From a virus (lineage: Duplodnaviria; Heunggongvirae; Uroviricota; Caudoviricetes), in the IMG/VR virus record IMGVR_UViG_3300042564_004235: DNA of 64,000 nt; one strand, given 5' to 3'. Below the pieces are notes generated by a model. That model was not told the origin of the DNA. It made no database searches and worked only from the letters and a program-made list of their open reading frames with translations. The position numbers and the translations under genes are program-made. This document shows positions 40,991 through 60,251 of this stretch, piece by piece. Positions within the stretch are counted from its first letter, which is position 1; each line of letters begins with the position of its first letter.

Positions 40991-41497
40991 ATGAGCGAAA
41001 AACAAACGTATGATTATGGATGTGTGATGTTGTATTTTGATTTTCCTGAAATCAAAAACCTACATTCATTAATTGATGAAGAAGATATATACACCGAAGA
41101 TGGTGATAGAAGTTTTGGTTTAGAAGATGAACCACACACAACATTACTTTATGGATTGCATGATGATGTGACAGAAGATGATGTTAGAGATGTTGTTAAT
41201 GGTTTTGATTATGTAACTTGTAGAATCACAAATCCATCTTTATTTGAAAATGAAAACTATGATGTTTTAAAATTTGATGCGAGTGGGCCAAACCTACACG
41301 AAACAAATTTTGAACTAAAAAATTATCCACACACGACATCTTTTCCTAACTACCATCCACATTTAACTATCGGTTATTTAAAACCAGGTATGGGTAAAAA
41401 ATATGTAAATAAACTAAAAGGATTACAGTTTAAATTGGATCCGACCCATGTTGTTTATTCTATGGCAAATGGGGATCAAATAAATTATGATTTATGA
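40991..41497 (+). CDS. 2H phosphoesterase superfamily protein (LigT/Acb1-like)
   Basis: Two H-x-T-x motifs (EPHTTLLYGL and HPHLTIGYL) ~75 aa apart, in a 168-aa protein. Confidence 0.6.
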   Translation: MSEKQTYDYGCVMLYFDFPEIKNLHSLIDEEDIYTEDGDRSFGLEDEPHTTLLYGLHDDVTEDDVRDVVNGFDYVTCRITNPSLFENENYDVLKFDASGPNLHETNFELKNYPHTTSFPNYHPHLTIGYLKPGMGKKYVNKLKGLQFKLDPTHVVYSMANGDQINYDL

Positions 41498-41754
41498 AAT
41501 ACAGAAAAAAACCAGTAGAAATTGATGCGATACAATGGGTATCCGATAACATTGAACAAGTGTATGAAATGTTAGGTGATAATCTAATAATAAATACAGA
41601 TGAAGATAAAGATGAGGTAAAACATTTCATTAACACATTGGAAGGTAAAATGGAGATGTCTTGGGGTGACTACATAATCAAAGGAGTTAAGGGCGAATTT
41701 TATCCGTGTCGTGAGGATATATTTTTATTAACTTATGAAAAATGCGTTGATTAA
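41494..41754 (+). CDS. hypothetical small protein
   Basis: 86-aa ORF. Confidence 0.4.
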   Translation: MKYRKKPVEIDAIQWVSDNIEQVYEMLGDNLIINTDEDKDEVKHFINTLEGKMEMSWGDYIIKGVKGEFYPCREDIFLLTYEKCVD

Positions 41755-41797
41755 TATTTTATGGTGTTTATTTTACTTATAAACCAAAAAATAAAAG

Positions 41798-42562
41798 ATG
41801 CCGTTTAAAGACAAAGAAAAATTAAAAGAGTGGAGAAGAAAATGGTGGTCATCATTAAATCCTGAAAGAAAAAAAGAAAAACAAGAAAAGGCAAACAATA
41901 GATCTAAAAAAATAAAACAGTTTCTTGCTGAATATAAAATAGAAATAGGATGTGTGGATTGTGGTTATAATATCCACCATGCGGCATTAGATTTTGATCA
42001 TATCACAAATGATAAATCATTTAATGTTTGTTTTGCAAAAAGTATTACACAGGCTAAAAAAGAAATTAAAAAATGTGAAGTAGTTTGTGCTAATTGTCAT
42101 AGAATAAGAACATATAATAGAATACAAAAAAATAAAATTATGAAAACAAAAGTATATTCAGCATTTCCTGGTGTAGGGAAAACAACTTATTTTAACACCA
42201 CAGATAAAAACGTATTGGACAGCGATAGTTCAAAGTTTGATAAGAAACTATTTCCTGCAAACTATATTGAACATATTGAAAGAAACATCCAAGACCCAAA
42301 GGTTGATATGATCCTTGTATCATCACATAAAGACGTTAGAGACGCACTTCTTAAAAAAGGAATACCTTACGTATTGGTTTATCCACAAAGAGACATCAAA
42401 GATGAGTATATCCAAAGATATAAAGATAGAGGAAACAACGACGCGTTTGTTGACTTATTGAATAAAAATTGGGATAATTGGATGGATGAGATGGACAGTC
42501 AAGAAGGTTGTGAAAAAGTAACACTTGGTCCTGGTCAATATTTAGCTGACGTAATAAATTAA
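41798..42562 (+). CDS. HNH endonuclease domain fused in-frame to a P-loop kinase-like domain
   Basis: N-terminal HNH (CVDCGYNIHHAALDFDHITNDKS...CEVVCANCHRIRTYN). Internal Met then Walker A MKTKVYSAFPGVGKTTYFN and VLDSD. Confidence 0.55.
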   Translation: MPFKDKEKLKEWRRKWWSSLNPERKKEKQEKANNRSKKIKQFLAEYKIEIGCVDCGYNIHHAALDFDHITNDKSFNVCFAKSITQAKKEIKKCEVVCANCHRIRTYNRIQKNKIMKTKVYSAFPGVGKTTYFNTTDKNVLDSDSSKFDKKLFPANYIEHIERNIQDPKVDMILVSSHKDVRDALLKKGIPYVLVYPQRDIKDEYIQRYKDRGNNDAFVDLLNKNWDNWMDEMDSQEGCEKVTLGPGQYLADVIN

Positions 42563-42639
42563 GATATGAAAAGATTATTTAAATACCTTGCTTGGTTAGA
42601 GCAAGAAAGAATTAAAGCGATGTCACAATCCGGTAGAGG

Positions 42640-42876
42640 ATGGGGATAAAACGTATTCACGTTAATCAACATAATGTTAGGTCCAATAAAACAAAGGACA
42701 CCGATCTTCCTGTAATAACAATTAAGGAAGGTAAGACCAATACGTACTGTAACGAAGTGGAGATACTTGGACCAAGTAAAATAAAGTATTGTGGTAGTGG
42801 AGATAAAAAACCATTATTACCTTGTGGTGCTAGAGTAGTAATAGAAACAGAGAGTGAAATTAAAATAATAAGTTAA
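42640..42876 (+). CDS. hypothetical small protein
   Basis: 78-aa ORF. Confidence 0.4.
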   Translation: MGIKRIHVNQHNVRSNKTKDTDLPVITIKEGKTNTYCNEVEILGPSKIKYCGSGDKKPLLPCGARVVIETESEIKIIS

Positions 42877-42877
42877 C

Positions 42878-43198
42878 ATGACAGATAAAGACATCTCAAA
42901 ATTCGGAGAAATACAATACCTCAAAGGTAGATTAGATGAACTATTTAAAGCGTTACCGACAGTATTTGATGTAAGTAGAAGTAGAAAACTTGACCAAAGA
43001 GTGGAAAAGTATTTGATTAAACTTAGAAACGTTGATGAGGTTTCTTTTCATTTATATCAAGTGGAATTAAAAACCAGACACAAATCAAAAGAAAGATCCA
43101 AAAAAGAAATAAAAGAACTATTGGAGGAAGTGTCTAAATCAGAAAACATATCAGAAGAATTATTAGAAAAAATTAAAAAACAAATTGATAAATATTAA
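42878..43198 (+). CDS. hypothetical coiled-coil protein
   Basis: 106-aa K/E-rich ORF. Confidence 0.4.
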   Translation: MTDKDISKFGEIQYLKGRLDELFKALPTVFDVSRSRKLDQRVEKYLIKLRNVDEVSFHLYQVELKTRHKSKERSKKEIKELLEEVSKSENISEELLEKIKKQIDKY

Positions 43199-43605
43199 TG
43201 GAATTAATCTCAACACACCCAATTAAAAAATCAGATTTAGGATTTCATGGTAACCTATTTGGCGGATCTCTATTAAAATGGATTGATGGTTCCGCTGCGG
43301 GGTATGCCATGCAACTTTGTGATACACCAAGAATGGTGACTGTATCTATTGATAAATGTAATTTTGAAAAACCCGCAAGAGAAGGTCAGTTATTAAAAAT
43401 ATATGGCTATCCATCCGCTGTTGGTAATAGTTCTGTAACATTATATATGGAAGCAAGAGCTCATAATGTTTATACTGGTAAACAAGTGATTGTATTAAAA
43501 ACACAAATAAAGTTTGTGCACATAGACGAGGAGGGTAACCCAATTCCAATCGGAGAAAAAGGAAGAAGAAGAATTCAAACATTAATTGATGCCAATTCAA
43601 AATAA
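43198..43605 (+). CDS. hotdog-fold acyl-CoA thioesterase-like protein
   Basis: GNLFGGSLLKWIDGSAAGYAM ... VTVSIDKCNFEKPAREGQLLKIYG resembles the 4HBT/YbgC-type thioesterase core. Confidence 0.5.
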   Translation: MELISTHPIKKSDLGFHGNLFGGSLLKWIDGSAAGYAMQLCDTPRMVTVSIDKCNFEKPAREGQLLKIYGYPSAVGNSSVTLYMEARAHNVYTGKQVIVLKTQIKFVHIDEEGNPIPIGEKGRRRIQTLIDANSK

Positions 43606-43622
43606 TTTATTATCTTTGTATT

Positions 43623-44327
43623 ATGAAAATGAGAATCACATTTATATCGGATACACATAATAAACACAATCAAATAAATAGTTTTTTGACTGGTGGTGAT
43701 TTATTAATACATGCTGGAGATATATCTAGTAGAGGTTATGTACACGAAATAGAGAATTTTGCGAAGTGGTATGATAAAATAGATAACTACGACAGTAAAG
43801 TTTTTATATGTGGTAATCACGACTTTGGGTTTCAAGATGATGCTGAAAAAGTAAAAGGATTACTTACTGGTTATAAAAACATAGATTATCTTCAAGATGA
43901 TTGGATGGGTGTTGGTGAAGATATAGATAACATGGTTAAAATATGGGGTAGTCCATGGCAACCTGAGTTCCATAATTGGGCTTTTAATTTACCTCGTGGT
44001 GAAAAACTAATGGAGAAGTGGAACTTGATACCAAAAGACGTTGATATCTTGGTTACTCACGGACCCGCTTTTGGTAAATTAGATTTTGTTCCATATGACG
44101 GTTTAAATGTTGGTTGTGAAGATTTGTTATCTAAAATACAAGAAGTAAAACCTAAAATCCATGTTTGTGGTCACATCCACGAAGGTTATGGGTATGTGTT
44201 TGATGGTACAACTCACTTTATAAATGCTTCCGTTCTTAACGGACGATATGAATTCCGAAACAAACCATTAACTGTTGATTGGGATCCAAAAACAAACGAA
44301 TTAGAATTTGTTGATAACGCAGGTTAA
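43623..44327 (+). CDS. calcineurin-like metallophosphoesterase
   Basis: Motifs ISDTHNKH (DxH), GDISSRG (GDxxDRG), GNHD and GHIHEG (GHxH). Confidence 0.75.
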   Translation: MKMRITFISDTHNKHNQINSFLTGGDLLIHAGDISSRGYVHEIENFAKWYDKIDNYDSKVFICGNHDFGFQDDAEKVKGLLTGYKNIDYLQDDWMGVGEDIDNMVKIWGSPWQPEFHNWAFNLPRGEKLMEKWNLIPKDVDILVTHGPAFGKLDFVPYDGLNVGCEDLLSKIQEVKPKIHVCGHIHEGYGYVFDGTTHFINASVLNGRYEFRNKPLTVDWDPKTNELEFVDNAG

Positions 44328-45904
44328 TCTACCTGCGTTATTGATACTATTTCAGCACCAAACCCTTTATTTAGTAATGTGATTTCTATTTCGTTAGGAT
44401 AAAGAATATTATTCTTTATTGATTCATAAAAATCAATCATATGTTTTTGTACTTTCACAGTGATCAAATAACAATTATCACCATATGAACTATCTCTTAA
44501 TGGTCCGTAATGGTTATTTAATAAATGATTCTTTTTTACTGAGTAATGTGAACCTGGATATTGTGTATCTATTTCATCTTTACTTCCTGCAAAAACTAAT
44601 CTATATAAAGTAAGACTTTCAGGTAACATATCATAATAATCCGTTAAATTGTTTAATTCATAAAGGGCGTCGTCATTATCAAAACCCATCTCATATAAAT
44701 ATCCAAGTAAGTTGTCAGTGTTATCTTCGCTCAATCTAATATAACTTTCATCTAAAGTTTTTCTTTCTTCTGGTGTTGTATTTTTAGGTGAAAGAGGTGG
44801 ATCCAATAAGAACTTCTCATTTAACCAATATCTTAATTCATTTTCAACAAAAAACTCAGGAACTTCTTCATCATCAGGTTTTTCTGATGCGGTATCTGCA
44901 ATGTATCTTGCAAATTTAACTTTTAATTTATCATCTAACATCGTCATTAAACCATCCGATATAAAAAATATTTTAGATAAAGGATCGGTTGTGCCTAACT
45001 CACCCTCCACTAAATTAAAGATTTTCATAATGGTTTTACCCCACCATGTTTTATAACCGGTAGTTTCTTCTAACGTAGGCCTAAAAACTTTATTAAATGC
45101 TCTTAACAATGAACCTGTAAAACCAGCAATTGCTAACTGAGGAAAAAACCATGGCAATAACCTTAATGTTGCCTTATAACCACCCTCACCGACATGTAAA
45201 ATTAATCTATTGGTTTTGGCGTTTTCAACCAATTCTCTTAACTGACCGAATGTTATTTTTCCTTGAGCTTTACAAAACTTTTTTGCGTCACAAATATTTT
45301 TAATTGTTTTAGATGAAGGTTCAATGTCTTCTTTTAGAGTTACAAAACTTTCACCTAAATTATATTTTGATTTTTTTAATAGGTTTTTAATAAAAAATAC
45401 AATACCTCCTAATACAACACCACTTACCAATACTTGTAAATTATCGGTGGTTATATTTCTATCATTTATTATTGATCCAATGATCTTCATAACCGGATTC
45501 AATAAGAATGCAAATCCAAGTATTTCACTTAATGAATATGAAACACCTAAAACACCTTTAACGACTTCTCTTATTATGTCCGTTGAATTTTTAATTAAAT
45601 TTTTTACACCATCAAATGCCTTTGTTAAATTCATTTCTTTTAATCTATCAAACAACAATTCTTTATTTTTGTCATTAATTAAATGTGCAATTGATGTTAT
45701 AATTAAAAGGGAAATCTCTGTTTCATTAAATGAAAACCCTGATCCTGTAAGCAATCTTTCAACGGGACCTAAAAATGCTGCCATTCCTGTACCGAAGGTG
45801 AATAATATACCTGTGTTTATTTTAAGATCCTTTAAGGTGTCCTTAAATAAATTCTCATTTATTAAACTTTTATATTGTTCTTCTGTTATTATTATTTTCA
45901 TCAT
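44324..45904 (-). CDS. leader-family membrane protein (526 aa)
   Basis: N-terminus MMKIIITEEQYKSLINENL (leader variant). Several TM segments (ILFTFGTGMAAFLG, VVLGGIVFFIKNLL). Confidence 0.55.
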   Translation of the reverse strand: MMKIIITEEQYKSLINENLFKDTLKDLKINTGILFTFGTGMAAFLGPVERLLTGSGFSFNETEISLLIITSIAHLINDKNKELLFDRLKEMNLTKAFDGVKNLIKNSTDIIREVVKGVLGVSYSLSEILGFAFLLNPVMKIIGSIINDRNITTDNLQVLVSGVVLGGIVFFIKNLLKKSKYNLGESFVTLKEDIEPSSKTIKNICDAKKFCKAQGKITFGQLRELVENAKTNRLILHVGEGGYKATLRLLPWFFPQLAIAGFTGSLLRAFNKVFRPTLEETTGYKTWWGKTIMKIFNLVEGELGTTDPLSKIFFISDGLMTMLDDKLKVKFARYIADTASEKPDDEEVPEFFVENELRYWLNEKFLLDPPLSPKNTTPEERKTLDESYIRLSEDNTDNLLGYLYEMGFDNDDALYELNNLTDYYDMLPESLTLYRLVFAGSKDEIDTQYPGSHYSVKKNHLLNNHYGPLRDSSYGDNCYLITVKVQKHMIDFYESIKNNILYPNEIEITLLNKGFGAEIVSITQVD

Positions 45905-46773: not shown

Positions 46774-46826
46774 GATAATATTATAAATAGTTTGATTAAT
46801 TAAAAATATAATCATACTTTTGCATT

Positions 46827-48239
46827 ATGGAAATAACACCTAAAATAAGAAAATTGATATATGGCATGTTTGATGACATGATTGAAGGTGCCGATAAGTA
46901 TGTAACAAAATCATCAATGTGGTTAATATTCACAGAAGAAAAAAGATGGGTTATTGAATTTACAAACACAAAAACTCTTTGGTTTAATTATAATCTATTT
47001 CATTCTGAATTAAAATTACTTAGCATTGATTGTGTTGAGTCAAAAGATATAATTAAAGAATGGTTTGAATCAAGATTTTTAGAAAAAGACATTGAACATG
47101 TTACTGACACATCTAATGTACCGTATTCAATAGTTGAAAACGTAGTTCAAAATGGGGTGAAGGACGCCAAACAAAAAAATATGATTTACTACAGGCGAGT
47201 TGAAGATACCATTCAAAATGGGGTAAAGGACACCTCATATCAAAATGAGTTGGTACAACACTTAGTTGAAGACACCATTCAAAATGGAGTGAAAAATACT
47301 GAACCCGATGATTTTATGAATGACATGGGTGTTGAAAACGCAATTCAAAATGGGGTAAAGCACACCTTCTTTGATTTTATAAAAGGAAGGATGTTTGTTG
47401 AAGACGCCATTCAAAATGGAGTGAAAGAAATTATAGATAATCCATTTTCTATGACAACCAATGTTGAAAATGCCATTCAAAATGGGGTAAAGGAAATTGA
47501 CGGTGATTCAAGTCCGTTGGAGGATATCGTTGAAGACACCCTTCAAAATGGGGTAAAATATGTCAAGGACGTACTTGAATCCTTAAATCCTGATTTTGAA
47601 GATACCCTTAAAAATGGAGTGAAAGAAAGTTATCCGTATTATTTTGAGGGAGATATAAATGTTGAAGACACAATTCAAAATGGGGTAAAGGACACCCAAA
47701 CACGAATGTGGTATCCATTGGGTGCGGTTGACGAAACTATTCAAAATGGGGTAAAAGAAATCTCAGCTTGGGTTTTCCCAAGAAGTAGGGAAATTAAAAA
47801 TGCGATTGAATTTGGTGGTCAGCAACCACCGAATGTTGATAAGACAATTAAAAATGGGGTGAAAGATATTGGACACTTTGACATGGATGATAATATTATT
47901 GCTGAAGATGTTATAGAAAATGGGGTGAAAGAGGTGAAGTCGGTATACCTAAGGAGTTGTTTAGGGGTTGGAGACGCCATTCAAAATGGTGTAAAAGAGA
48001 CTATCGGTACGCTACGACGTACTCTTCTTGGGGTTGATGACATTATTCAAAATGGTGTAAAAGACACAGGTGCTAGACATCTCCGTATAAATCGTAAAGT
48101 TGATGATGTTATACAAAATGGTGTTAAAGAAGTTAAACATAAGATGGCTGAAAGTTATCAACAAAAAGATCATATGGTTACTAACGCTATAATTACTGAA
48201 GATATTAATTATGCTATTGAAAATGGTATTAAAGAATAA
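46827..48239 (+). CDS. tandem-repeat protein (about 19 copies of (E/V)(D/N)(T/A)IQNGVK(D/E))
   Basis: Periodic IQNGVKD motif every ~18-25 aa along 470 aa. DNA-level repeats attcaaaatggggtaaaggac. ATG follows the -7 box catacttttgcatt. Confidence 0.55.
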   Translation: MEITPKIRKLIYGMFDDMIEGADKYVTKSSMWLIFTEEKRWVIEFTNTKTLWFNYNLFHSELKLLSIDCVESKDIIKEWFESRFLEKDIEHVTDTSNVPYSIVENVVQNGVKDAKQKNMIYYRRVEDTIQNGVKDTSYQNELVQHLVEDTIQNGVKNTEPDDFMNDMGVENAIQNGVKHTFFDFIKGRMFVEDAIQNGVKEIIDNPFSMTTNVENAIQNGVKEIDGDSSPLEDIVEDTLQNGVKYVKDVLESLNPDFEDTLKNGVKESYPYYFEGDINVEDTIQNGVKDTQTRMWYPLGAVDETIQNGVKEISAWVFPRSREIKNAIEFGGQQPPNVDKTIKNGVKDIGHFDMDDNIIAEDVIENGVKEVKSVYLRSCLGVGDAIQNGVKETIGTLRRTLLGVDDIIQNGVKDTGARHLRINRKVDDVIQNGVKEVKHKMAESYQQKDHMVTNAIITEDINYAIENGIKE

Positions 48240-48260
48240 AAAAATTATTATATTTGCAAT

Positions 48261-48665
48261 ATGGAAAAAATGTTATATTTAGTTAGAGGAATACCAGGTT
48301 CAGGAAAATCAACATTTGCTAAAACGATAAGTCCTATTATTGTTGAGGCGGATCAATACTTTATTGATGGTGAAGGTAATTACAAGTTTGATGGGTCAAA
48401 AATAAAATTGGCTCATGAATATTGTAGAGCACAAACCGAAGCTTGGATGCAAACTAAAGGAGACCAAGTGAATGTTGATAAAATTGCAGTATCAAACACC
48501 TTTACACAGTTCTGGGAAATGGAACCATACTTTGAACTTGCAGAGAAATATGGGTATAAAACTTTCAGTATTGTGGTTGAAAACAGACATGGTAATAAAA
48601 GTATTCACAATGTCCCTGAAGATAAGGTGCAAATGATGAAAGACAGGTTTGAGATTAAGATTTAA
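48261..48665 (+). CDS. P-loop polynucleotide-kinase-like protein (T4 Pnk kinase-domain-like)
   Basis: Walker A YLVRGIPGSGKSTFAKT, close to the T4 Pnk GCPGSGKST context. 134 aa, kinase domain only. Confidence 0.55.
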   Translation: MEKMLYLVRGIPGSGKSTFAKTISPIIVEADQYFIDGEGNYKFDGSKIKLAHEYCRAQTEAWMQTKGDQVNVDKIAVSNTFTQFWEMEPYFELAEKYGYKTFSIVVENRHGNKSIHNVPEDKVQMMKDRFEIKI

Positions 48666-49245
48666 CAATAAACTTTTTGTAGTCAGTTGTTGAAGGTTTT
48701 TCATTTTTAAAGTAATACGTTTCAGTTTTACCGTTATATGTGATTTTTTTATAATACCCATCAGGTACAGTTGCACCAGATTTTAAAACAACTGAAGTTT
48801 TAGAAAACATACAAGTAACGGTTACTGTCACCGTATATTTTAAAGCCAATTCTCTTTCATATACCTCCAACAATCTCCAAGTAGTTCGGTTTAGGTCCTG
48901 ATGTTGTAGTGTACAATTTAAATAACTAAAGGTTTTCTTTAACATTATTTTATCACAATTAAAATCTGCCGCAGGGGCCATATGACCCTTGTCCCAAACA
49001 TTACTTTCATAATCTTTACTGTCTGATGTCTTAACAGAATCACAAGTAAAAAAATCCATACCTGATCTTGATGCGGAACCTGAAGGACACTGAACGGTGT
49101 ATGTTACTGAAAGTGGTTGTTCTAATTTTTCGGAGTAAACGACTTGAAATATGTCGGTTTTAATTGTGACATTATCTCTTAATACTTTTTGAGATAATAA
49201 AATAAAAGGTAAAATAAAAAATAATAGTAGTAAAAACTTTTTCAT
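48655..49245 (-). CDS. secreted DNA/RNA non-specific endonuclease (NucA family)
   Basis: Signal peptide MKKFLLLLFFILPFILLSQ. Active-site motif WDKGHMAPAADF (DRGH.AP-like). Confidence 0.6.
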   Translation of the reverse strand: MKKFLLLLFFILPFILLSQKVLRDNVTIKTDIFQVVYSEKLEQPLSVTYTVQCPSGSASRSGMDFFTCDSVKTSDSKDYESNVWDKGHMAPAADFNCDKIMLKKTFSYLNCTLQHQDLNRTTWRLLEVYERELALKYTVTVTVTCMFSKTSVVLKSGATVPDGYYKKITYNGKTETYYFKNEKPSTTDYKKFIVKS

Positions 49246-49272
49246 CTAAATAAATATTAGTATATTTGTATT

Positions 49273-49926
49273 ATGAGTTTTAGAAAATTATTAACAACAG
49301 GAAAAGTATATATAACATCCGATACCCATTTCGGACACAAAAATATTGTGCGAGGAGTAACCAATTGGAGAACACAAGATGGTGAAGTACCTATTGATTC
49401 AACAAGGGACTTTCAAACAATTGAACAGATGAACGAACGTTTGATTGATGGTATTAACCACTTTGTTGGTCAAGATGACACATTAATAATGTTAGGTGAC
49501 GTTTCATTTGGTGGGTTTGATAACATCGGTATCTTTCTTGAAAGATTGGTTTGTCACAACATCCATTTAATACTTGGAAATCACGATCATCACATAGATA
49601 GAAACCGTGACTTTGTTCAAGGAAGATTTTTAAGTGTTCAACACTATTTGGAAGTAAATATTGAAGGTCAGGACTTTGTGTTATGTCACTATCCTTTACA
49701 AAGTTGGAACGGACTTAACAAAGGTGTTATCCATTTGCACGGCCACGTACACCTTAGTCCTAATAGAAAATTTGGTAATGGAAAAAGACTTGACGTTGGT
49801 ATGGATGGAAATGGAATGGACCCATACAGTATTTCTGAAATAATAAAAATTATGGATAAAATACCTGTTGGTTCTGATATGTCAGGTGATCACCATTTGG
49901 ACGGATTAGTTGGTGTTGTAGGTTAA
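49273..49926 (+). CDS. calcineurin-like metallophosphoesterase (second copy)
   Basis: Motifs ITSDTHFGH, GDVSFGG, GNHDHH and GHVH. Confidence 0.7.
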   Translation: MSFRKLLTTGKVYITSDTHFGHKNIVRGVTNWRTQDGEVPIDSTRDFQTIEQMNERLIDGINHFVGQDDTLIMLGDVSFGGFDNIGIFLERLVCHNIHLILGNHDHHIDRNRDFVQGRFLSVQHYLEVNIEGQDFVLCHYPLQSWNGLNKGVIHLHGHVHLSPNRKFGNGKRLDVGMDGNGMDPYSISEIIKIMDKIPVGSDMSGDHHLDGLVGVVG

Positions 49927-49952: not shown

Positions 49953-51185
49953 ATGAAAATCATTTTAACAGAAAGTCAATTTAGAATATTACAGGAAGCT
50001 GTCGGTGTTCCTGAAGGAATATTACAAGCGGGTGAAGAATTATACAATTTAGTATCTGATGAATTAAAAACAATAGATACCACCGAAGAAAATTATAGTT
50101 TTAAAATTTATAGTGACTTAGTAATATCTGATGTAACGTTCACTAAAATAAATGTTGAAGTTTCTGTTGAAGAAGTTGAAGATTTCCCATATGAATATCC
50201 GGTGATTGCATCTATGGGTGTTGGTAATGAATTTAAATTTGACGAAGGTGTAATGTTGCAAGTTAACGCTAAAAGCCAAACAATAGAACTACACATAAAC
50301 TTTATATCTCCCGAAGGTTGGGAACCTGAAGAGTTATATGAAGAATTCACCAAAGATAAAGAACAAACAATATCTGTAATGTCACACGAAATAATGCATA
50401 GATTTCATAGACAAAAACAAGAACACGAACTTATTGGTGGAACTGCTGATTATAACGTTTATTCTTCAGGAACTTTAAGATTTGGAATACCTGTGATTAA
50501 TGAATTTATGAGGTATAGTTATTTTATACAACAATCAGAAAACATTGTAAGACCAACTGAGGTTGCCTCAAGAATGATCCAAAAAGGAATTAAAAAACAA
50601 GATTTTTATGATTTTATTGTAAATGATGAGGTTTTTACTGAACTTAAAAAAATACGTGAATTTTCATATGATTATTTAATGGAGCAGTTATACGAACAAA
50701 TGGATAGTATTGATGGATTAATTAGTCATGCGGGTGGAGATCCTGATACTATGAATGATGAAGAAAAAATTAAATCAGTTTTGGAACTTATTTATATTAA
50801 CTTAGTTAATGCTAAAGTGGATACATTTGATAATTTCTTTTATACACATTCTGAAAAAATGGCACAAATGTTCAGTGGATTTATGGGTCAATTATTTGGT
50901 AAAACACAAGAACCAAGTGGAGAAAAAGAAAAGGTTAGAAGAAAGTTTATTAATCACGTTTCAAAATATAAAGATAGAGAAATGGACTTCTTCGTGGATG
51001 AATGTGAAAGATTTAATTATGTCTCAACAAATTTAATGAAAAAAATATCAAAAATATATTCTCTCCTTCCTGATGAAAAAGAACAAACAAACGAATCTAT
51101 ATTAGATTGGGACTTACACCAAAAACTTATGGAAAAAAGATATGGTAAAAGACCAATAGAAACTTCCTACAAATTCAAAAAATAA
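49953..51185 (+). CDS. leader-family protein with HExxH zinc-metallopeptidase motif
   Basis: N-terminus MKIILTESQFRILQEAV (leader). VMSHEIMHRFH is a HExxH motif. Confidence 0.55.
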   Translation: MKIILTESQFRILQEAVGVPEGILQAGEELYNLVSDELKTIDTTEENYSFKIYSDLVISDVTFTKINVEVSVEEVEDFPYEYPVIASMGVGNEFKFDEGVMLQVNAKSQTIELHINFISPEGWEPEELYEEFTKDKEQTISVMSHEIMHRFHRQKQEHELIGGTADYNVYSSGTLRFGIPVINEFMRYSYFIQQSENIVRPTEVASRMIQKGIKKQDFYDFIVNDEVFTELKKIREFSYDYLMEQLYEQMDSIDGLISHAGGDPDTMNDEEKIKSVLELIYINLVNAKVDTFDNFFYTHSEKMAQMFSGFMGQLFGKTQEPSGEKEKVRRKFINHVSKYKDREMDFFVDECERFNYVSTNLMKKISKIYSLLPDEKEQTNESILDWDLHQKLMEKRYGKRPIETSYKFKK

Positions 51186-52297: not shown

Positions 52298-52298
52298 T

Positions 52299-52709: not shown

Positions 52710-52710
52710 T

Positions 52711-53899: not shown

Positions 53900-53901
53900 A
53901 A

Positions 53902-55035
53902 ATGGAAAATTTAAATAGTGTTGCATATGTTGGTAAGATAGGTTCTATATCTGAAATACCAAACGCCGATAACATAGAGTTAGTTACTGTTGGTGGGTGG
54001 AACGCCATAACCAAGAAAGGCGAATACAAAGTAGACGATAAGGTTGTTGTTGCAACTACTGATGCGGTAATACCACAAGCTTTATCTGACTTGATGGAAG
54101 TAACTAACTACCTTCGTAAAGGACAAAGAGTTCGTACCGTTAAACTTCGAGGTGTTTACTCTGAATGTTTATTAATACCATTCAAATACTTGGCACCAAA
54201 ATCATTGGAGAACAACGTTAATGAAGGTGATGATATGATGGGAATACTTGGTATAACTAAATACGAACCACCAGTTAAAACCGTTCAGTTAAGTGTTGGT
54301 GGACGTAAAATAAAATACCACCAAAACCCTAACTTCAAAGTTTACTACAAGTTCCCTAACCAAAAGAACGTACCTGATATGTTCAGTGAGGAAGATGAAG
54401 TTGTTATAACTCGTAAACTTCATGGAACTAATGCTCGTTACGGTATAGTTAGAAAGAAAAAACTATCTATATGGGATCGTGTTAAAATGTTCTTTGGAAA
54501 TCAATGGGCAGCATTTGAATATGTTTATGGTTCTCATAACGTAGAAAAAGGTTCTGACTCACAAGGATTCTATGATACTGATGTGTGGAAAACTGTAGCA
54601 AACAACTACGACATAAGAGGTAAGTTGTGGGATCACGTAAAAGATACTTACGAACCACTTGACTTGACTGAAGGTGTTGTAATATACGGTGAGATATATG
54701 GTGCTGGTATACAGAAAAACTACGAGTACGGTTTGACTGATGTTAAATTTGCTGGATTTGATGTTGAAGTTGACGGAGTGTACCAACCATACATAAATGA
54801 AACGGTACATTTTGATTGTCTTCAATTACCTCAAGTTGAGTTACTATACAAAGGCATATGGGTTAAAGAAATACAAGATAGTTTTGTATTCAATAACAAC
54901 ATAGAAGGGACTAAAGTACCACACGAAGGTGTTGTTGTTAAATCTATAACTGGTGACCGTAGAAAGGTTAGTAAGGTAATAAATCCTGACTATTTAATAT
55001 ATGGTGAAAAAAATAACGTAGGTGACTCCCATTAA
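53902..55035 (+). CDS. RNA ligase, Rnl2/Rnl5-like nucleotidyltransferase
   Basis: Motif I ITRKLHGTNARYG (KxHGxN, the Rnl2-family lysine-adenylylation motif), preceded by an N-terminal ~110-aa domain as in Rnl5/NgrRnl-type ligases. Confidence 0.55.
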   Translation: MENLNSVAYVGKIGSISEIPNADNIELVTVGGWNAITKKGEYKVDDKVVVATTDAVIPQALSDLMEVTNYLRKGQRVRTVKLRGVYSECLLIPFKYLAPKSLENNVNEGDDMMGILGITKYEPPVKTVQLSVGGRKIKYHQNPNFKVYYKFPNQKNVPDMFSEEDEVVITRKLHGTNARYGIVRKKKLSIWDRVKMFFGNQWAAFEYVYGSHNVEKGSDSQGFYDTDVWKTVANNYDIRGKLWDHVKDTYEPLDLTEGVVIYGEIYGAGIQKNYEYGLTDVKFAGFDVEVDGVYQPYINETVHFDCLQLPQVELLYKGIWVKEIQDSFVFNNNIEGTKVPHEGVVVKSITGDRRKVSKVINPDYLIYGEKNNVGDSH

Positions 55036-55058
55036 CTTGATGGAGTCACTTTTTTTTA
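55022..55058 (+). terminator. rho-independent terminator
   Basis: gtgactcccattaacttgatggagtcac hairpin followed by tttttttt; overlaps the ligase stop codon. Confidence 0.65.
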
Positions 55059-55081
55059 TTAACTTTATAAAAAATTAAATT

Positions 55082-55348
55082 ATGCCTTACATAAATGTAA
55101 AAGTGGAATTGGATGAGGTTTATGACCAAATGGGTACGTATGATAAAAATGATATTGCCGAATGGTTATACGAAGACGGAATATTAGAAACACACCCAAA
55201 TTCCGAAATAAGAAAATTAGTTAGAGGTAAAGAAGAATCTAATGGGGAAAAAGAGTTAAGAGATAATTTAGCTAAATTATGGAATGCTCATTACCAACTA
55301 ACAAATGAAGAAGAATTATTAATTAAACAAATAGCAAATAGATTATGA
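55082..55348 (+). CDS. hypothetical protein
   Basis: 88-aa ORF. Confidence 0.4.
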   Translation: MPYINVKVELDEVYDQMGTYDKNDIAEWLYEDGILETHPNSEIRKLVRGKEESNGEKELRDNLAKLWNAHYQLTNEEELLIKQIANRL

Positions 55349-55584
55349 TACAGCCAGCAAGAGAAATTATTTACGGTGTTTGTGATAAAACCGGTGATTG
55401 TGATTCGTATTTTGGATTCTTTAAAAATTATGAAGACGCACAAAAAGAAGTTAAAACTCAATCAGACAGATTAAAAAATGAATTAGGTATGATGGATATT
55501 GTCGTTAAAGAAGACAGGGCAATTGTACCTAAAGATAGAGTAGAAACCGTTGTAATAATAATTCATAGTTATGTCCTTAGATAA
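55345..55584 (+). CDS. hypothetical protein
   Basis: 79-aa ORF. Confidence 0.4.
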   Translation: MIQPAREIIYGVCDKTGDCDSYFGFFKNYEDAQKEVKTQSDRLKNELGMMDIVVKEDRAIVPKDRVETVVIIIHSYVLR

Positions 55585-55783
55585 AGAAAAAGAACCAATA
55601 GGGTTAAAGATCACGAAGTTTATAGTGGCGAACGTTTTTTGGTATTTGTTATTTTCTATAATTTATCTTAATATTGATTGTAGAGAATGGTGGTTAGTTA
55701 AAGGTGCATGGGGTAGATTCGTGCTTGTGGTTTTAGAATTATTAATTTATGGAAATATATTTTTAAATGGGAAAAAAAATTGA
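55571..55783 (+). CDS. small membrane protein
   Basis: Two hydrophobic segments. Confidence 0.4.
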   Translation: MSLDKEKEPIGLKITKFIVANVFWYLLFSIIYLNIDCREWWLVKGAWGRFVLVVLELLIYGNIFLNGKKN

Positions 55784-55970
55784 AGTTTTAGTTAGGTTTG
55801 CAAATGAAGGAACTTACTACAATACCATTAGTATTGATCCAAAAAAAATAGAAGACCCGATGATTTTTACAGATGAGGTTTTTGTGACTATTGATGGTAT
55901 TAGAGTTGCAATAAAAAAAGAAGATTGGAATAAAATTGAATCATGGGTAGAGATTGGAAAAGAGAATTAA
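55767..55970 (+). CDS. hypothetical small protein
   Basis: 67-aa ORF. Confidence 0.35.
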   Translation: MGKKIEVLVRFANEGTYYNTISIDPKKIEDPMIFTDEVFVTIDGIRVAIKKEDWNKIESWVEIGKEN

Positions 55971-57016
55971 AAGAAATTTTAAAAAAAAATAATATGAGTG
56001 AAGAATATATTGAAGAAACGGTAGGGTACGGTGATACTGTACCTGAAGAAGAAGTAGAATACGCAGATGATGAAAGAATGGATGAACCTGTGATTACTGG
56101 AAGGTTTGGTAGGTTAAGAGCATCTATAGAAGATAAAAAAATTGATGCGGATGTACCTTCTTGTTGGAGTAATTTAAAAAATAATGAATATGCGCCAGCA
56201 TATCCTACAGTACCAAAAGTACCTGCCGGTGTTTATGAAATCGGGTGGAATGGTAATTTATCAACACATACATTAAAGAAACAACCATTCAAGACAGATG
56301 AGTTATACCATTTACCATCATATGAGATCACAGACATATTAAAAGACATTGATAATTTTTGGAATAGAGCAGACAATTATAAGAAGTATAACTACATCCA
56401 CAAGAGAGGAATTTTAATGTATGGTGAACCAGGTTGTGGTAAATCAGGAATTATTCAACTAATATCACAACAAATAATTGAAAAAGATGGCATTGTGATC
56501 AATGTTAAAGATGAAGAAGATGTTGAAAGGTTTACATCATTTATTGCAACATTTAGAAAAGTTGAACCTAATAGACCATTGATTGTTTTATTAGAAGATA
56601 TTGATTCACTTGCCGGTGAAGGTAGAAGTCAGACCGCAAGACTATTAAACATCCTTGATGGTGTAAAACAAATTGAAGGTGTTGTTTATATTGCAACAAC
56701 AAACTATCCTGAGAAGTTACAAGATAGAATCACAAACAGACCATCTCGTTTTGACAGACGTTATAAAGTGGAACTACCAAACGCCGATATTAGAAGAGCA
56801 TATATTCAACACAAATTAAATGATGAAGATTTAAAAGGTATTGATATTGAAGAATGGATCAAAAAAACTGAAGGAATGTCTTTGTCACATTTAAAAGAAG
56901 TTGTAATTTCGGTTATTGTTATGGGTAGAACATTTGAAGAAACAATTGAAAACCTTGAAGGGTTGAAAAAAACACCAACAATTAAAGGTGGAGGTAAAGT
57001 AGGGTTTGGAAATTAA
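55943..57016 (+). CDS. AAA+ ATPase
   Basis: Walker A GILMYGEPGCGKSGI. Walker B IVLLEDIDSL. Sensor/Arg-finger region TTNYPEKLQDRITNRPSRFDRRY. Confidence 0.8.
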   Translation: MGRDWKRELKEILKKNNMSEEYIEETVGYGDTVPEEEVEYADDERMDEPVITGRFGRLRASIEDKKIDADVPSCWSNLKNNEYAPAYPTVPKVPAGVYEIGWNGNLSTHTLKKQPFKTDELYHLPSYEITDILKDIDNFWNRADNYKKYNYIHKRGILMYGEPGCGKSGIIQLISQQIIEKDGIVINVKDEEDVERFTSFIATFRKVEPNRPLIVLLEDIDSLAGEGRSQTARLLNILDGVKQIEGVVYIATTNYPEKLQDRITNRPSRFDRRYKVELPNADIRRAYIQHKLNDEDLKGIDIEEWIKKTEGMSLSHLKEVVISVIVMGRTFEETIENLEGLKKTPTIKGGGKVGFGN

Positions 57017-57022
57017 AAGATT

Positions 57023-57460
57023 ATGAGACATCACGCAAATTTTTATACAAATAGATTAGTCAAGGAATGGTTGAAAAACGGTAAGGTCATAATTGCTTGT
57101 GACCTTGATGATACAATCATTCCTTACAACGAAGAAATCAAAGAGAACTGTAAAAAAATGGTTAATTTGATTTTGGACTGTCAAAAAGAAGGTATTATAT
57201 TTTTAATTAACACAGCAAGAAGTGAACACCAATTAGAAAGGGCAAAACAACAAGTTGAAGAACTTGGTATTATTGTTCACGGAGTAAATGAAATGCACCC
57301 TGAATGGGATAAACCTTATGGTGTAAATGGGAAGTTGTATGCAAATATCTTCCTTGATGATAGAGGAGGTTTTTGGGACACGTATTGGACTTTATCAAAC
57401 GCTTTAAGTATTGTTAGACACCAAAGAAAAAATGGGGATCAGAATGAACGACAATCATAG
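57023..57460 (+). CDS. HAD-superfamily hydrolase-like protein
   Basis: Motif I KVIIACDLDDTII (DxDxT). Confidence 0.45.
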   Translation: MRHHANFYTNRLVKEWLKNGKVIIACDLDDTIIPYNEEIKENCKKMVNLILDCQKEGIIFLINTARSEHQLERAKQQVEELGIIVHGVNEMHPEWDKPYGVNGKLYANIFLDDRGGFWDTYWTLSNALSIVRHQRKNGDQNERQS

Positions 57461-57995
57461 AACAGATTTTGAATTTGAAAGTTTTTTAAATTCAATTAGT
57501 GGGGTAACAATTTCACATAAACCACATTTACCACCAATTACAGAAAGAAGATATTTTGGAATTAACAATGGTTGGTTAGGAATTTTACAAAGATTATTTG
57601 AAACGTTGATTGCTCTTGGTTGGGATAAAAGTTTTATAAATGTAAAAGAAAAGTTTGGAGGTATGAGTATATTTTTGGATAACCTACCTGAAAACGGATT
57701 TTATTTTGTGGTGGAAGCAGAAAGAGAAACATTTAAAGTTTGTGAAGTTTGTGGAGAGCCGGGAGAACAAAATCGTATTAACGGTTGGGTCCATACTTTA
57801 TGTGAAAAACATAGAGATGAAAAACTATATGTTGATCATGAAGGTAAAACATACCTTAAAAAATTAATGGAACCAATATTAAACGGAGACCTGTATTACA
57901 ATGCTTTAAATAATGAAATTATACTTTGTGATGTGGATAAATTTTTTGATCCTTGGTCATTAAAAGTTGTTGAAGTTATAAAAAATAATAATTAA
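57411..57995 (+). CDS. hypothetical protein with CxxC...C..H cluster
   Basis: FKVCEVCGEPGEQNRINGWVHTLCEKH. Confidence 0.45.
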   Translation: MLDTKEKMGIRMNDNHRTDFEFESFLNSISGVTISHKPHLPPITERRYFGINNGWLGILQRLFETLIALGWDKSFINVKEKFGGMSIFLDNLPENGFYFVVEAERETFKVCEVCGEPGEQNRINGWVHTLCEKHRDEKLYVDHEGKTYLKKLMEPILNGDLYYNALNNEIILCDVDKFFDPWSLKVVEVIKNNN

Positions 57996-58004
57996 ATTTT
58001 TGTT

Positions 58005-58325
58005 ATGGAAAGTGAAATTGAAAGATTAAACAAAATGAGAGAAAGAATAATTGAAAAGGCAGAAAAAATTAAACCAGATTTTAAACCAAGACAAGAGCCA
58101 AAACAAGATTTGGGAGATGAAGGTTACGGACCAATGACATTTACCATCTACCCAAAAGAAAACAAAATACTTAACGAATGGATGGGAAGTATTTACGGTG
58201 TTTATGGTAAGTATGGTAACTTTGATTACACATTCAAATCAACAGGTGGGTTAGGTTGGGATATTTGGGTTTATAGCGAATTAGCAAAAACAGAAATATG
58301 TTTAACAAAAGATGTTGACTATTAA
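58005..58325 (+). CDS. hypothetical protein
   Basis: 106-aa ORF. Confidence 0.4.
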   Translation: MESEIERLNKMRERIIEKAEKIKPDFKPRQEPKQDLGDEGYGPMTFTIYPKENKILNEWMGSIYGVYGKYGNFDYTFKSTGGLGWDIWVYSELAKTEICLTKDVDY

Positions 58326-58349
58326 AAATTAAAATTATATAATTGAACT

Positions 58350-58784
58350 ATGAATATAAAACAAGCACTTAAACAGAAAAATAAGTTGATCAAAGAGATC
58401 ACCGAAAACACAAGGTTAATGCAAGAGTATAACTCAATTGAACTTGGAAATGAGAGACCATATAGTATAAATTCACTTTATGATGAGGTAATTAACGCAT
58501 CTTTAGAATTATCTAAATTAAAAGCAAAAATCCATAGAGCAAATGTTCCTGTGTTAGAAGACATATTCTTAATGGCAGAAATGAAATCAACAATCCAGTC
58601 ACTTAAAAAAATGGATTGCACATCAGGAAAATCAAATAGGAATATGTATTCCTCAACAGAAATTGTTTTAATGGTTGAAATGAATATTGTTGAAAGAAAT
58701 AATAAAATTAAACAATTAGAAAATAGAATTGAAGAAATTCAAGATAAGCTTGATATATTCAATGCAAACACAGAAATAGTATAG
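58350..58784 (+). CDS. hypothetical coiled-coil protein
   Basis: 144-aa ORF. Confidence 0.4.
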   Translation: MNIKQALKQKNKLIKEITENTRLMQEYNSIELGNERPYSINSLYDEVINASLELSKLKAKIHRANVPVLEDIFLMAEMKSTIQSLKKMDCTSGKSNRNMYSSTEIVLMVEMNIVERNNKIKQLENRIEEIQDKLDIFNANTEIV

Positions 58785-58957
58785 TTTGAGTAAAAGGTTA
58801 AAAATTATGGTTTACTTCATTGAAAATCCGGCTGGAAGATAAGTGATACTGATAATGCATAGTCCCAAACTCAAAATTCAAATCATCATAAATCATTTAG
58901 TTAAAATTTAAAATTCTCGCTTTGACCATTTTTAACTCTTGAACCAAACTATATTAA

Positions 58958-58990
58958 GCCCCCAGTATTTTTATTGGGGGTTTGTTTATT
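58958..58990 (+). terminator. rho-independent terminator
   Basis: gcccccagtatttttattggggg hairpin followed by tttgtttatt. Confidence 0.55.
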
Positions 58991-59017
58991 TAAAATATTT
59001 TTATTATCTTTGTTATT

Positions 59018-59563
59018 ATGAAAGTTTTATTTTTAGATTTTGATGGGGTTATATGTCTATCTTCAGAATGGGGAGGACGATATAAAAAAAAAGGGTTTGA
59101 TTCAAATCCCGAAACACCTATGGACACCCGAATGGACAGTTTCAATCAAAAAGCCGTTAAAGTATTAAATGAAATCATAGAAAAAACTGGATGTGAATTA
59201 GTTATTTCATCTGATTGGAAAAAACACGGAACTTTGGACCAACTAAAAGAAATGTTTATTACTCGTGGAATTAAACCACCAGTTGATATAACACCATTTT
59301 GTAGTGTTCTATTTCGTGAAGGTAAATTACCTGATGATTTTGTTTTACCACACTTTAATAAAACAGAATATGAACGACATATTGAAATATTAAATTGGTT
59401 AAAAGAACATCCTGAAGTAACACATTGGGTTGCTGTTGATGATCTTGATATGTCAAAACGAGATGGTTGGGGACTTGAAAACTTTGTTCACTGTAAACGA
59501 CCATATAATGAAGGTATCAAACAATCAGGAATTAAAGAAAAAATTATAAAATTTTTGGAATGA
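59018..59563 (+). CDS. HAD-superfamily phosphatase-like protein
   Basis: Motif I VLFLDFDGVIC (DxDG[TV]). Confidence 0.5.
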   Translation: MKVLFLDFDGVICLSSEWGGRYKKKGFDSNPETPMDTRMDSFNQKAVKVLNEIIEKTGCELVISSDWKKHGTLDQLKEMFITRGIKPPVDITPFCSVLFREGKLPDDFVLPHFNKTEYERHIEILNWLKEHPEVTHWVAVDDLDMSKRDGWGLENFVHCKRPYNEGIKQSGIKEKIIKFLE

Positions 59564-59874
59564 TTAATATAAAAGATTTATTTAAAAAAAGACCTGATTT
59601 GCTTGCAGAATTGGAAGTTAAAAAACTTATCGAACACACCAAGGAACTTGAGGGTGAAATATTTGAAAAGAAAATAGAAGAAACATATAATAAAGAACAC
59701 ATATTAAAATCAATGTTGTCTGACATTCTTACAAGTTGTAGAGAGCATGAGGAAAATAAATTACTCCAAGATAGATACCCAGAATTATATGAAAAAGTTG
59801 ATGCGGATTCTTTAGTTAAAAATTTAATGGATTATATTATATCTATGAATGCTAAAAACGATTTGAGGTTATGA
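59560..59874 (+). CDS. hypothetical protein
   Basis: 104-aa ORF. Confidence 0.4.
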   Translation: MINIKDLFKKRPDLLAELEVKKLIEHTKELEGEIFEKKIEETYNKEHILKSMLSDILTSCREHEENKLLQDRYPELYEKVDADSLVKNLMDYIISMNAKNDLRL

Positions 59875-60251
59875 AAAAAAGAGTTTATTTAATTGATATT
59901 GATGGGACTGTATGTGACGATATAAAAAACGAAGACAGCCATTTATATAAAGACGCAAAACCATATGAGGGGTCTAAAGAAGAAATAAATAAACTTTATG
60001 ATGAAGGAAATAAAATTGTTTTCTTTACTGCAAGGGAATATAAAGATAAGGGAACCACACTTATTTGGTTATGGAAACACGGGTTTAAGTTTCACGATTT
60101 AATAACCGATAAACCAAGATGTGGTGAGGATGAAGAATACGTTTGGATTGATAACAAACCAGTAAGAGGTATAACATATAAAGGAGAGTGGGGACCAATT
60201 GTTGAAACAAAAAATCAAGAGGTTGAAACTTTATTAAATTTTAAAAACTAA
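59871..60251 (+). CDS. HAD-superfamily phosphatase-like protein (polynucleotide 3'-phosphatase candidate)
   Basis: Motif I VYLIDIDGTVC, identical in form to the T4 Pnk phosphatase DxDGT motif. Confidence 0.5.
   Translation: MKKRVYLIDIDGTVCDDIKNEDSHLYKDAKPYEGSKEEINKLYDEGNKIVFFTAREYKDKGTTLIWLWKHGFKFHDLITDKPRCGEDEEYVWIDNKPVRGITYKGEWGPIVETKNQEVETLLNFKN

Follow-up and report, generated by a model that had tools for sequence, protein, structure and literature searches.

A probable RNA repair cassette with an Rnl5-type ligase in an uncultured jumbo-phage lineage

The analysed DNA is a stretch of 64,000 nucleotides from a virus of the class Caudoviricetes (IMG/VR record IMGVR_UViG_3300042564_004235), referred to here as the window, and the genes under study lie between its positions 40,991 and 60,251. 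Three of them, encoding a Pnk-like kinase (48261-48665), a binuclear metallophosphoesterase named MPE2 (49273-49926) and an Rnl5-family ATP-dependent RNA ligase (53902-55035), probably constitute a heal-and-seal RNA repair pathway. An earlier note on the same DNA had proposed that the Pnk and Rnl logic of phage T4 was split here over many separate small genes. All the open reading frames named in it were found in their places with the domains ascribed to them. The proposed logic held for the kinase, MPE2 and the ligase, on the evidence of linkage, cassettes, displacement and fusions, while the inclusion of a second metallophosphoesterase (MPE1, from 43623), two small HAD phosphatases (HAD1, from 57023, and HAD3, from 59871) and an AAA+ ATPase (from 55943) was unsupported.

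The window was AT-rich (31.6% guanine plus cytosine), and its small genes were densely packed and mostly on the plus strand. When the 19-kb region was searched with Megablast, none of 50,697 phage records matched; the lineage is known from metagenomes only. Many relatives of the window were present in IMG/VR, with contigs reaching 214 and 304 kb, and the lineage was therefore regarded as one of uncultured jumbo phages. Several top protein and fold matches belonged to phages of Flavobacteriia (Flavobacterium phage immuto, Cellulophaga phage phi17:2, Maribacter phage Colly_1, and Tenacibaculum phage PTm1), which hints at a host in the Bacteroidota.

The ligase (377 residues, plus strand) consisted of an N-terminal OB-like domain (residues 1-127) and a nucleotidyltransferase domain extending to approximately residue 365; a C-terminal domain was absent, and only 19 residues followed the last lysine of motif V (K358). 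Pfam recognised the OB domain as PHA02142 (7e-14) and the remainder as RNA_ligase (3e-13). Residues 6-127 aligned with residues 6-129 of NgrRnl from Naegleria gruberi, both as a single sequence (1.9e-14) and as a profile (1.9e-17). In the search of PDB, the profile built from 17 homologues matched NgrRnl at 2e-22, spanning the N-terminal domain and motifs III and IV, and T4 Rnl2 at 1e-4; motifs III and IV aligned with those of both enzymes. Residues K172, H174, G175, T176, and N177 of motif I (KLHGTN) were invariant among the 17 homologues, as were E264 of motif III, F286 and D287 of motif IIIa, E342, G343, and K347 of motif IV, and K355 and K358 of motif V, so that the motifs downstream of motif I, to which the earlier note had directed attention, were all present. 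Motif I resembles that of T4 Rnl2. The NCBIfam model TIGR02306 (RNA_lig_DRB0094, the DraRnl model) matched residues 11-365 at 4e-36, under its equivalog cut-off (124.5 versus 151.15 bits), and the protein is, judged by sequence, a divergent member of Rnl5 and not an equivalog by the NCBI threshold. It fits the definition of Rnl5 because the N-terminal signature domain is present and the C-terminal appendage is absent (PMC4408790); the earlier label, Rnl2/Rnl5-type, could thereby be narrowed to Rnl5.

The kinase (134 residues, plus strand) is a stand-alone, predicted 5'-OH polynucleotide kinase. It scored over the gathering threshold of Pfam AAA_33 (1.7e-7), contained the P-loop GIPGSGKST (G10-T18), and matched PHROG 2071 (2e-39) and also PHROG 505, annotated as polynucleotide kinase. 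For the kinase, MPE2, and the SAK-type HAD phosphatase described below, PDB searches with single sequences were uninformative and profiles were required; the alignments for structure prediction were built from database homologues. With the kinase-family profile, polynucleotide kinases ranked first: the fungal entries 9D8A and 9DRZ, T4 Pnk (4e-4), CthPnk (1e-3), and Pnkp1. Catalytic residues were conserved beyond the P-loop, as the earlier note had asked of this protein: G13, G15, K16 (followed by S or T), E29, and D31 were invariant, and D31, the putative general base, aligned to D35 of T4 Pnk. The AlphaFold2 model had a predicted local distance difference test (pLDDT) score of 79.5, and when it was compared with PDB in Foldseek, the top 18 matches were all T4 Pnk and CthPnk (expectation value [E] 3e-5 to 3e-4, template modelling [TM] score 0.63-0.68).

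MPE2 (217 residues, plus strand) is the proposed healer of 2',3'-cyclic-phosphate or 3'-phosphate ends. It matched Pfam Metallophos (1.2e-6, 29.6 bits versus a cut-off of 21.5) and PHROG 547 (5e-47). The metal-ligand motifs DxH, GD, GNH(D/E), H, and GHxH were all kept, with D17/H19, G75/D76, G102/N103/H104, H139, and H156/G157/H158/H160 invariant in 17 sequences, and the C-terminal DHH was also conserved among the 17 homologues. In the profile search of PDB, the sole significant solved relative was the uncharacterised aq_1665 (1XM7, 1e-12), and neither a Pnkp nor a lambda-phosphatase was matched. The closest homologue in a cultured phage was that of Flavobacterium phage immuto (47% identity; L088, 3853-5624), which starts 12 nucleotides past a cluster of four transfer RNA (tRNA) genes; kinase or RNA ligase annotations were absent from that neighbourhood.

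The presence of P-loop, HAD, and metallophosphoesterase domains within 19 kb is insignificant alone, because such domains are common in large phage genomes. What exceeds chance is conserved micro-synteny rather than the co-presence of domains. To describe it, 80 viral loci containing relatives of the ligase (63-98% ligase identity; numbered with the prefix L) were assembled, and all window proteins were mapped on them. Linkage was counted in the 28 fully flanked loci, which had at least 8.5 kb on either side of the ligase, and a gene was scored when it lay at most 10 kb from the ligase. The kinase homologue was linked in 27 of the 28 loci and MPE2 in 26, followed by the SAK-type HAD (from 59018; 21 loci), the AAA+ ATPase (13), HAD1 (11), HAD3 (6), MPE1 (5), and a 2H phosphoesterase (from 40991; 3). 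The stop of the kinase gene and the start of the MPE2 gene usually overlapped or abutted in the relatives. In the most diverged of these the three core genes were contiguous, in the order kinase-ligase-MPE2 (L065, L066, L075) or ligase-MPE2-kinase (L067). The gene order thus shifted (kinase-MPE2 with the ligase further on was also seen), and proximity was retained. In the relatives L059-L076 the order was kinase, ligase, 2H gene after 2-5 kb, and tRNA island after another 0.7-5 kb, the island starting 3.5-9 kb downstream of the ligase start. Proteins of approximately 150-230 residues flanking the cassettes in L065, L066, L075, L077, L081, and L068 had no Pfam family and no match to the local profiles, and they were rejected as further toolkit members.

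The wider spacing in the window was accounted for by other genes. The gap of approximately 4 kb between MPE2 and the ligase was filled with lineage-specific genes. Between the kinase and MPE2, a gene on the opposite strand (48655-49245, minus; 196 residues) encoded a protein of the DNA/RNA non-specific nuclease family (Pfam Endonuclease_NS, 2.6e-23) with a hydrophobic, signal-peptide-like N-terminus. The same insertion was found only in L012, L028, L029, and L037 among the 80 loci; in other relatives, the Endonuclease_NS gene was on the plus strand, 7-9 kb upstream of the ligase. From this distribution, the nuclease gene is taken to be a lineage-specific insertion and not a pathway member. Directly upstream of the kinase, an open reading frame at 46827-48239 (plus strand, 470 residues) encoded a protein without a family match, in which a strict repeat of 22 residues with the ending (E/D)xxIQNGVK occurs 16 times; relatives were present in 15 of the 80 loci. 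The gene at 49953-51185 (plus strand, 410 residues) contained an HEIMH motif, similar to that of HExxH metalloproteases, and had neither a Pfam nor a PHROG family; its homologue lay directly downstream of MPE2 in 43 of the 80 loci.

The proposed 3'-healing position of the cassette was occupied by alternative enzymes. L053 and L054 were without MPE2, and the gene abutting their kinase encoded a full-length T4-Pnkp-type HAD phosphatase (HAD_PNKP, PF25109, 2.8e-31). In L053, HAD_PNKP, kinase, and Rnl5 ligase formed a contiguous cassette (6647-8625); in L054 (8321-11140), HAD_PNKP abutted the kinase, and the ligase lay approximately 0.8 kb downstream. When 60 loci having at least 7.5 kb upstream were compared, 44 had MPE2 only, 10 had HAD_PNKP only, 6 had neither, and none had both. 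Such mutual exclusivity is the pattern expected if MPE2 performs the 3'-phosphatase job. The earlier suggestion that two calcineurin-like phosphoesterases act as 2',3' healers is consequently retained, by linkage and displacement, for the protein at 49273, and not for the MPPED2-type protein at 43623.

The same kinase and MPE2 families were found beside other ligases in unrelated phages. The order was MPE2-Rnl1-kinase in Aeromonas phage phiA009 and Rnl1, one other gene, kinase, and MPE2 in Vibrio phage Ceto; in Pseudomonas phage NoPa both families were close to an Rnl1-type ligase, and neighbouring genes in E. coli phage phiWec189 encoded the kinase and MPE2, with tRNA genes at a distance of 3.5 kb. 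When 1.8 billion representative proteins were searched exhaustively, 8132 relatives of the kinase were returned. The best 150 representatives included five fusions to an Rnl1 ligase (P0285, P0319, P0283, P0303, P0388) and nine to an HD phosphohydrolase (P0272, P0336, P0353, and six more), and no kinase-MPE2 fusion protein. At the level of sequence and gene context, then, the kinase family is tied to two RNA ligase families and three alternative types of phosphoesterase. In several unrelated phages, one or more of the repair genes (for ligase, kinase, or MPE2) were a few kb from genes for salvage of nicotinamide adenine dinucleotide (NAD), namely ribose-phosphate pyrophosphokinase and nicotinamide phosphoribosyltransferase (NoPa, L002, 5417-8324; Ceto, L084, 6043-8393; pf16, L085, 6103-8050; Staphylococcus phage Zeno, L089, 7421-7486). 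This proximity suggests a recurring counter-defence neighbourhood.

From these data we infer the activities, the order of the steps, the RNA substrate, and a role in counter-defence as follows. The pathway would start from a break with a 2',3'-cyclic phosphate (or 3'-phosphate) and a 5'-OH end, the kind of break that metal-independent ribotoxins, anticodon nucleases among them, produce. MPE2 would heal the 3' side to a 3'-OH, the Pnk-like kinase would heal the 5' side to a 5'-phosphate, and the Rnl5 ligase would seal the break via lysyl-AMP (on K172) and AppRNA. The SAK-type HAD phosphatase, and possibly the 2H protein, could add end cleaning by removal of monoesters and opening of cyclic phosphates. 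The ancestral trio would have been contiguous, and would have been separated here by inserted genes (approximately 4 kb), with the opposite-strand nuclease gene between the kinase and MPE2. The purpose, alongside the 23 tRNAs that the phage itself encodes, is probably to undo the cutting of tRNA or of other structured RNAs by host nucleases, a reading that draws on the analogy with T4 and on the tRNA context. Since the characterised Rnl5 enzymes prefer duplex nicks, the broken site could lie in a stem or in some other structured RNA, or even at an RNA-DNA junction.

The stand-alone SAK-type HAD phosphatase (59018-59563, plus strand, 181 residues) is the probable accessory. It matched Pfam HAD_SAK_2, a "Swiss Army Knife" family, at 3.3e-25 (89.5 bits versus a cut-off of 27.5), and D7/D9, S64/S65, and D141/D142 were conserved in 25 homologues. 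In L080, a SAK-type HAD gene directly preceded the ligase gene. The window gene comes after the sole strong terminator-like hairpin of the scan (58955-58984) and is therefore probably on a separate transcript. The family has been predicted to be a linear RNA-end phosphatase in jumbo phages (PMC7824862), and by family and context a function as an accessory end cleaner is plausible. The inclusion of the other two HAD proteins of the region had no comparable support. HAD1 (57023-57460, plus strand) matched Hydrolase_3 (6.5e-6) and PHROG 1238, had a weak match to the NCBIfam BT0820 family, and appeared to be a generic small HAD. HAD3 (59871-60251, plus strand; HAD superfamily) was considered as a T4-Pnkp-type phosphatase and rejected: the matches to the Pnk PHROG covered the N-terminal half only (residues 1-79, with motif I), the closest solved structures were 1XPJ and a capsule-biosynthesis phosphatase (both 1.7e-3), the match to Pfam HAD_PNKP was only 6.7e-4 and below cut-off, and identity to the genuine HAD_PNKP of L053 was 22.6% (E 0.054). 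Motifs I-IV were conserved in all three HAD proteins, so that catalytic residues beyond motif I, for which the earlier note had asked, were present; the literal motif DxDGT, which had been ascribed to each, was present in HAD3 only (DIDGT), the others having DLDDT (HAD1) and DFDGV (SAK-type). The classic AAA+ ATPase (55943-57016, plus strand; PF00004, 9e-17, with CDC48/FtsH-like NCBIfam matches) had no pathway link, at 13 of the 28 fully flanked loci.

The 2H phosphoesterase (40991-41497, plus strand, 168 residues) is a possible accessory. Its two HxT motifs, which had been pointed out before, were invariant (H49-x-T51 and H124-x-T126), and the AlphaFold2 model (pLDDT 93.8) had a 2H fold, with 2H enzymes as all top fold matches. 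The gene was flanked by two homing-endonuclease genes (39766-40518 and 41798-42562, plus strand), one with an I-TevI-type DNA-binding domain and NUMOD3 and the other an HNH endonuclease, and a thymidylate synthase gene (38878-39717) lay just upstream of the first of these. The homing endonucleases may explain why the 2H gene is positioned differently from its relatives. The protein could be an RNA 2',3'-cyclic phosphodiesterase or, equally, an Acb1-like degrader of immune signals. We give somewhat less than even weight to the reading in which both the 2H protein and MPE1 degrade host immune-signalling nucleotides (CBASS, Pycsar) instead of processing RNA ends, which would be compatible with repair by the core trio. 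The best PDB match of the 2H profile was Acb1 (0.0096), and among the homologues Pfam Acb1 was matched more often than 2_5_RNA_ligase2, many having a precomputed PF23474 assignment; in the window protein itself both Pfam matches were below the gathering cut-off of 27 bits (2_5_RNA_ligase2, PF13563, 9e-5, 22.9 bits; Acb1, PF23474, 9e-4, 19.5 bits). When the model was compared with PDB, phage Acb1-type phosphodiesterases, Usb1, and the poxvirus cyclic GMP-AMP (cGAMP) phosphodiesterase led (TM 0.5-0.66), with the Acb1-type entries first, yet at a TM of only 0.47-0.58, and LigT structures ranked 15th or lower (TM ~0.45-0.48). Against BFVD, however, the best matches (TM 0.75-0.8) were proteins of Flavobacteriia phages annotated as 2'-5' RNA ligase superfamily or cyclic phosphodiesterase, and named Acb1 proteins reached only ~TM 0.5. 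Also against a signalling function, in L059-L076 the 2H gene has the ligase on one side and the tRNA island on the other, and 2H proteins are among the predicted openers of cyclic ends in jumbo-phage RNA repair (PMC7824862). MPE1 (43623-44327, plus strand; Pfam Metallophos, above the gathering score) aligned over residues 4-220 to residues 61-290 of rat/human MPPED2 (PDB 3RL4) at 6e-48, and for this likeness it was rejected as a Pnkp-type phosphatase. MPPED2 is a cyclic-nucleotide phosphodiesterase, and its family is linked to the hydrolysis of such nucleotides and is not known to heal polynucleotide ends. The rarity of both genes near the ligase (3 and 5 of the 28 loci) also speaks for a signalling target. 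A 4HBT-family thioesterase gene (1.2e-14) was immediately upstream of MPE1, and the pair (43198-44327, plus strand) may form a two-gene unit.

Two further explanations concern the core trio itself. It could be that there is no pathway, and that the genes for common phage hydrolases and a P-loop kinase, serving nucleotide metabolism or the takeover of the host, only happen to lie in the same early-gene region. The frequency of these domains in large phages would allow for this, as would the dispersal of the genes, a promoter scan that gave no enrichment over shuffles, the many phages with the MPE2 family and no kinase, and the properties of the other proteins first listed (MPE1 MPPED2-like, HAD3 nearest to capsule-type phosphatases, HAD1 and the AAA+ ATPase unlinked). 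We nevertheless consider it very improbable: the core trio is contiguous in diverged relatives and its linkage outlives rearrangement, the 3'-healing enzymes exclude each other, kinase-ligase fusions exist, and the core pair recurs beside a different ligase family in unrelated phages. A common pathway could also act on DNA-associated substrates (RNA-DNA junction nicks, ribonucleotide patches or primers, or 3'-phosphate/5'-OH nicks made in phage DNA by host nucleases) and not on tRNA or mRNA. T4 Pnkp acts on DNA ends too, and the cassette was beside a DNA ligase gene in phiA009 and NoPa, with a dUTPase gene as well in phiA009. DraRnl and NgrRnl need RNA only on the 3'-OH strand, and Deinococcus radiodurans without DraRnl is more sensitive to ionising radiation (PMC5397189, PMC4408790). 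A DNA substrate is still unlikely in our judgement, given that the kinase/MPE2 pair partners Rnl1-type ligases, of which the T4 prototype repairs tRNA, and that the kinase is fused to them; furthermore, tRNA islands border the cassette in relatives and in phiWec189, and no replication genes adjoined it in the window.

Several observations weigh against RNA repair by the kinase, MPE2, and the ligase. The 80 loci are related phages, and the counts drawn from them are not independent events. In the window, the core genes are separated by gaps of 0.6 and 4 kb that contain unrelated genes. A nearly invariant phenylalanine of the kinase family, F34, stands at the position of R38 of T4 Pnk, and the arginine is absent; in T4 Pnk this residue, three positions past the general base, contacts the substrate. 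The MPE2 family, with 1479 phage records, is broader than that of the kinase, with 623, and some of its members, in Staphylococcus and Listeria phages, have no evident partner. MPE2 also falls in the aq_1665 clade, outside the lambda-phosphatase/Pnkp clade for which 2',3'-cyclic phosphodiesterase activity has been documented (PMC2190708). Neither a kinase nor MPE2 adjoined the Rnl5-type ligases of phages pf16, Superphikiman, and Papperlapapp; in pf16, the small gene located upstream of the ligase was examined as a kinase candidate and rejected (hhalign probability 0.3%). Finally, the characterised Rnl5 enzymes seal duplex nicks with an RNA 3'-OH strand, their physiological substrates are not known (PMC4408790, PMC5397189), and the functions of the family have been called "uncharted" by Shuman's laboratory (PMC5397189); a break in an anticodon loop may therefore not be the substrate.

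The tRNA island occupied positions 9131-21682 (plus strand). ARAGORN counted 23 genes, not more than 23 as had been claimed, and the anticodon loop of one was abnormal. The aberrant gene was the last of the island (21607-21682, plus strand), with an 8-nucleotide anticodon loop, TTTTAAAC, for which ARAGORN gave the four-base anticodon ttaa. A tRNA reading UAA would be surprising here because TAA was the main stop codon (14 of 17 genes checked). Odd tRNAs were also present in relatives: ttga in L063, and cta, resembling a Pyl or amber-suppressor tRNA, in L081. The island contained a DNA methylase gene (15311-16096) and genes for an RNaseH_like protein (16114-16644; PF04308, 1.4e-25) and a PD-(D/E)XK endonuclease (20456-20881; 2.3e-24), the latter two on the plus strand. 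Downstream of the island, a two-component pair (22771-24821, plus strand) consisted of a PAS-domain histidine kinase (532 residues; PAS_9 3e-17, HATPase_c 2e-14) and, encoded by the very next gene, a response-regulator receiver-domain protein (145 residues, 2e-8). The protein encoded at 3703-5442 (plus strand, 579 residues) had a weak N-terminal match to the DHH family (8e-4, below cut-off); DHH phosphoesterases are among the predicted phage degraders of nucleotide signals.

Host defences that cut tRNA or other RNAs are widespread and include anticodon nucleases, PARIS, Cas13 collateral cleavage, and toxin RNases. To our knowledge, T4 Pnkp/Rnl1 is the only phage repair answer to them with experimental support. 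The cassette described here is common among jumbo phages from the environment and provides another repair system, of a different build, that can be put to the test. Its displacement pattern yields concrete predictions, with MPE2, HAD_PNKP, and HD enzymes as alternative 3' healers and Rnl5 and Rnl1 as alternative ligases. For a wider interpretation the grounds for and against appear evenly poised: phage Rnl5 ligases would be the sealing part of a modular, mix-and-match repair of RNA breaks built on one family of small Pnk-like kinases, which would swap between three 3' healers (aq_1665-type, HAD_PNKP, and HD) and two ligases (Rnl1 and Rnl5). If true, this would assign a function to the uncharacterised aq_1665 clade of metallophosphoesterases. 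The general idea had already been predicted by comparative genomics, and the gain is a sharper, testable example and not a new principle.

Gene sets for RNA repair were reportedly predicted by comparative genomics by Burroughs and Aravind in 2016. Jumbo phages have been predicted to combine many tRNAs with Rnl1 or Rnl2 ATP-grasp ligases and polynucleotide kinases (Iyer et al. 2021, PMC7824862), and their predicted repair also includes 2H proteins, PKN-HAD or SAK-type HAD, and rarely calcineurin-like or HD phosphatases (PMC7824862). The ligases were grouped as Rnl1 or Rnl2 in those surveys, whereas the ligase of the window is Rnl5. No experimental characterisation of a kinase/MPE2/Rnl5 cassette was found in the literature search. 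In comparison with the characterised Rnl5 enzymes, DraRnl of D. radiodurans and NgrRnl, the window ligase has the same N-terminal OB-like module and nucleotidyltransferase domain, the conserved motifs, and no C-terminal appendage, but it is only ~25-30% identical to them and has KLHGTN as motif I instead of KLDG (PMC4408790). It is also tied genomically to end-healing enzymes, which is unreported for the characterised members.

With bacterial Pnkp/Hen1 (Clostridium thermocellum, Capnocytophaga), the cassette shares a P-loop kinase, a binuclear metallophosphoesterase, and an ATP-dependent ligase, and CthPnk was among the best fold matches of the kinase. The differences are that the window has three separate genes and not one polypeptide, a different ligase family, and an MPE2 of the aq_1665 type and not the lambda-phosphatase type; the ligase of the bacterial Pnkp1-Rnl-Hen1 system likewise forms a polypeptide of its own (PMC4411300, PMC3675462). 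The approximately 70 window open reading frames scanned against Pfam gave no match to a Hen1 methyltransferase, many small ones being outside that scan, and the only methyltransferases among them were N6_N4 DNA methylases. In T4, Pnkp and Rnl1 counter the PrrC anticodon nuclease by the logic proposed here, in which a kinase for 5'-OH ends, a phosphatase for 3' ends, and an ATP-dependent RNA ligase are all encoded by the phage. T4 Pnk was the nearest match of the kinase model, and L053 and L054 even have a T4-Pnkp-type HAD beside the kinase. The window itself is without HAD_PNKP, its nearest candidate being HAD3; the kinase has no HAD fusion, the 3' healer is a metallophosphoesterase, the ligase is Rnl5 and not Rnl1, the genes are dispersed, and a cognate host nuclease is known for T4 only. 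Specific to the present case are an Rnl5 ligase as the sealer, a phosphoesterase of the aq_1665 type, the division over three genes, and explicit evidence for the displacement of both phosphatase and ligase.

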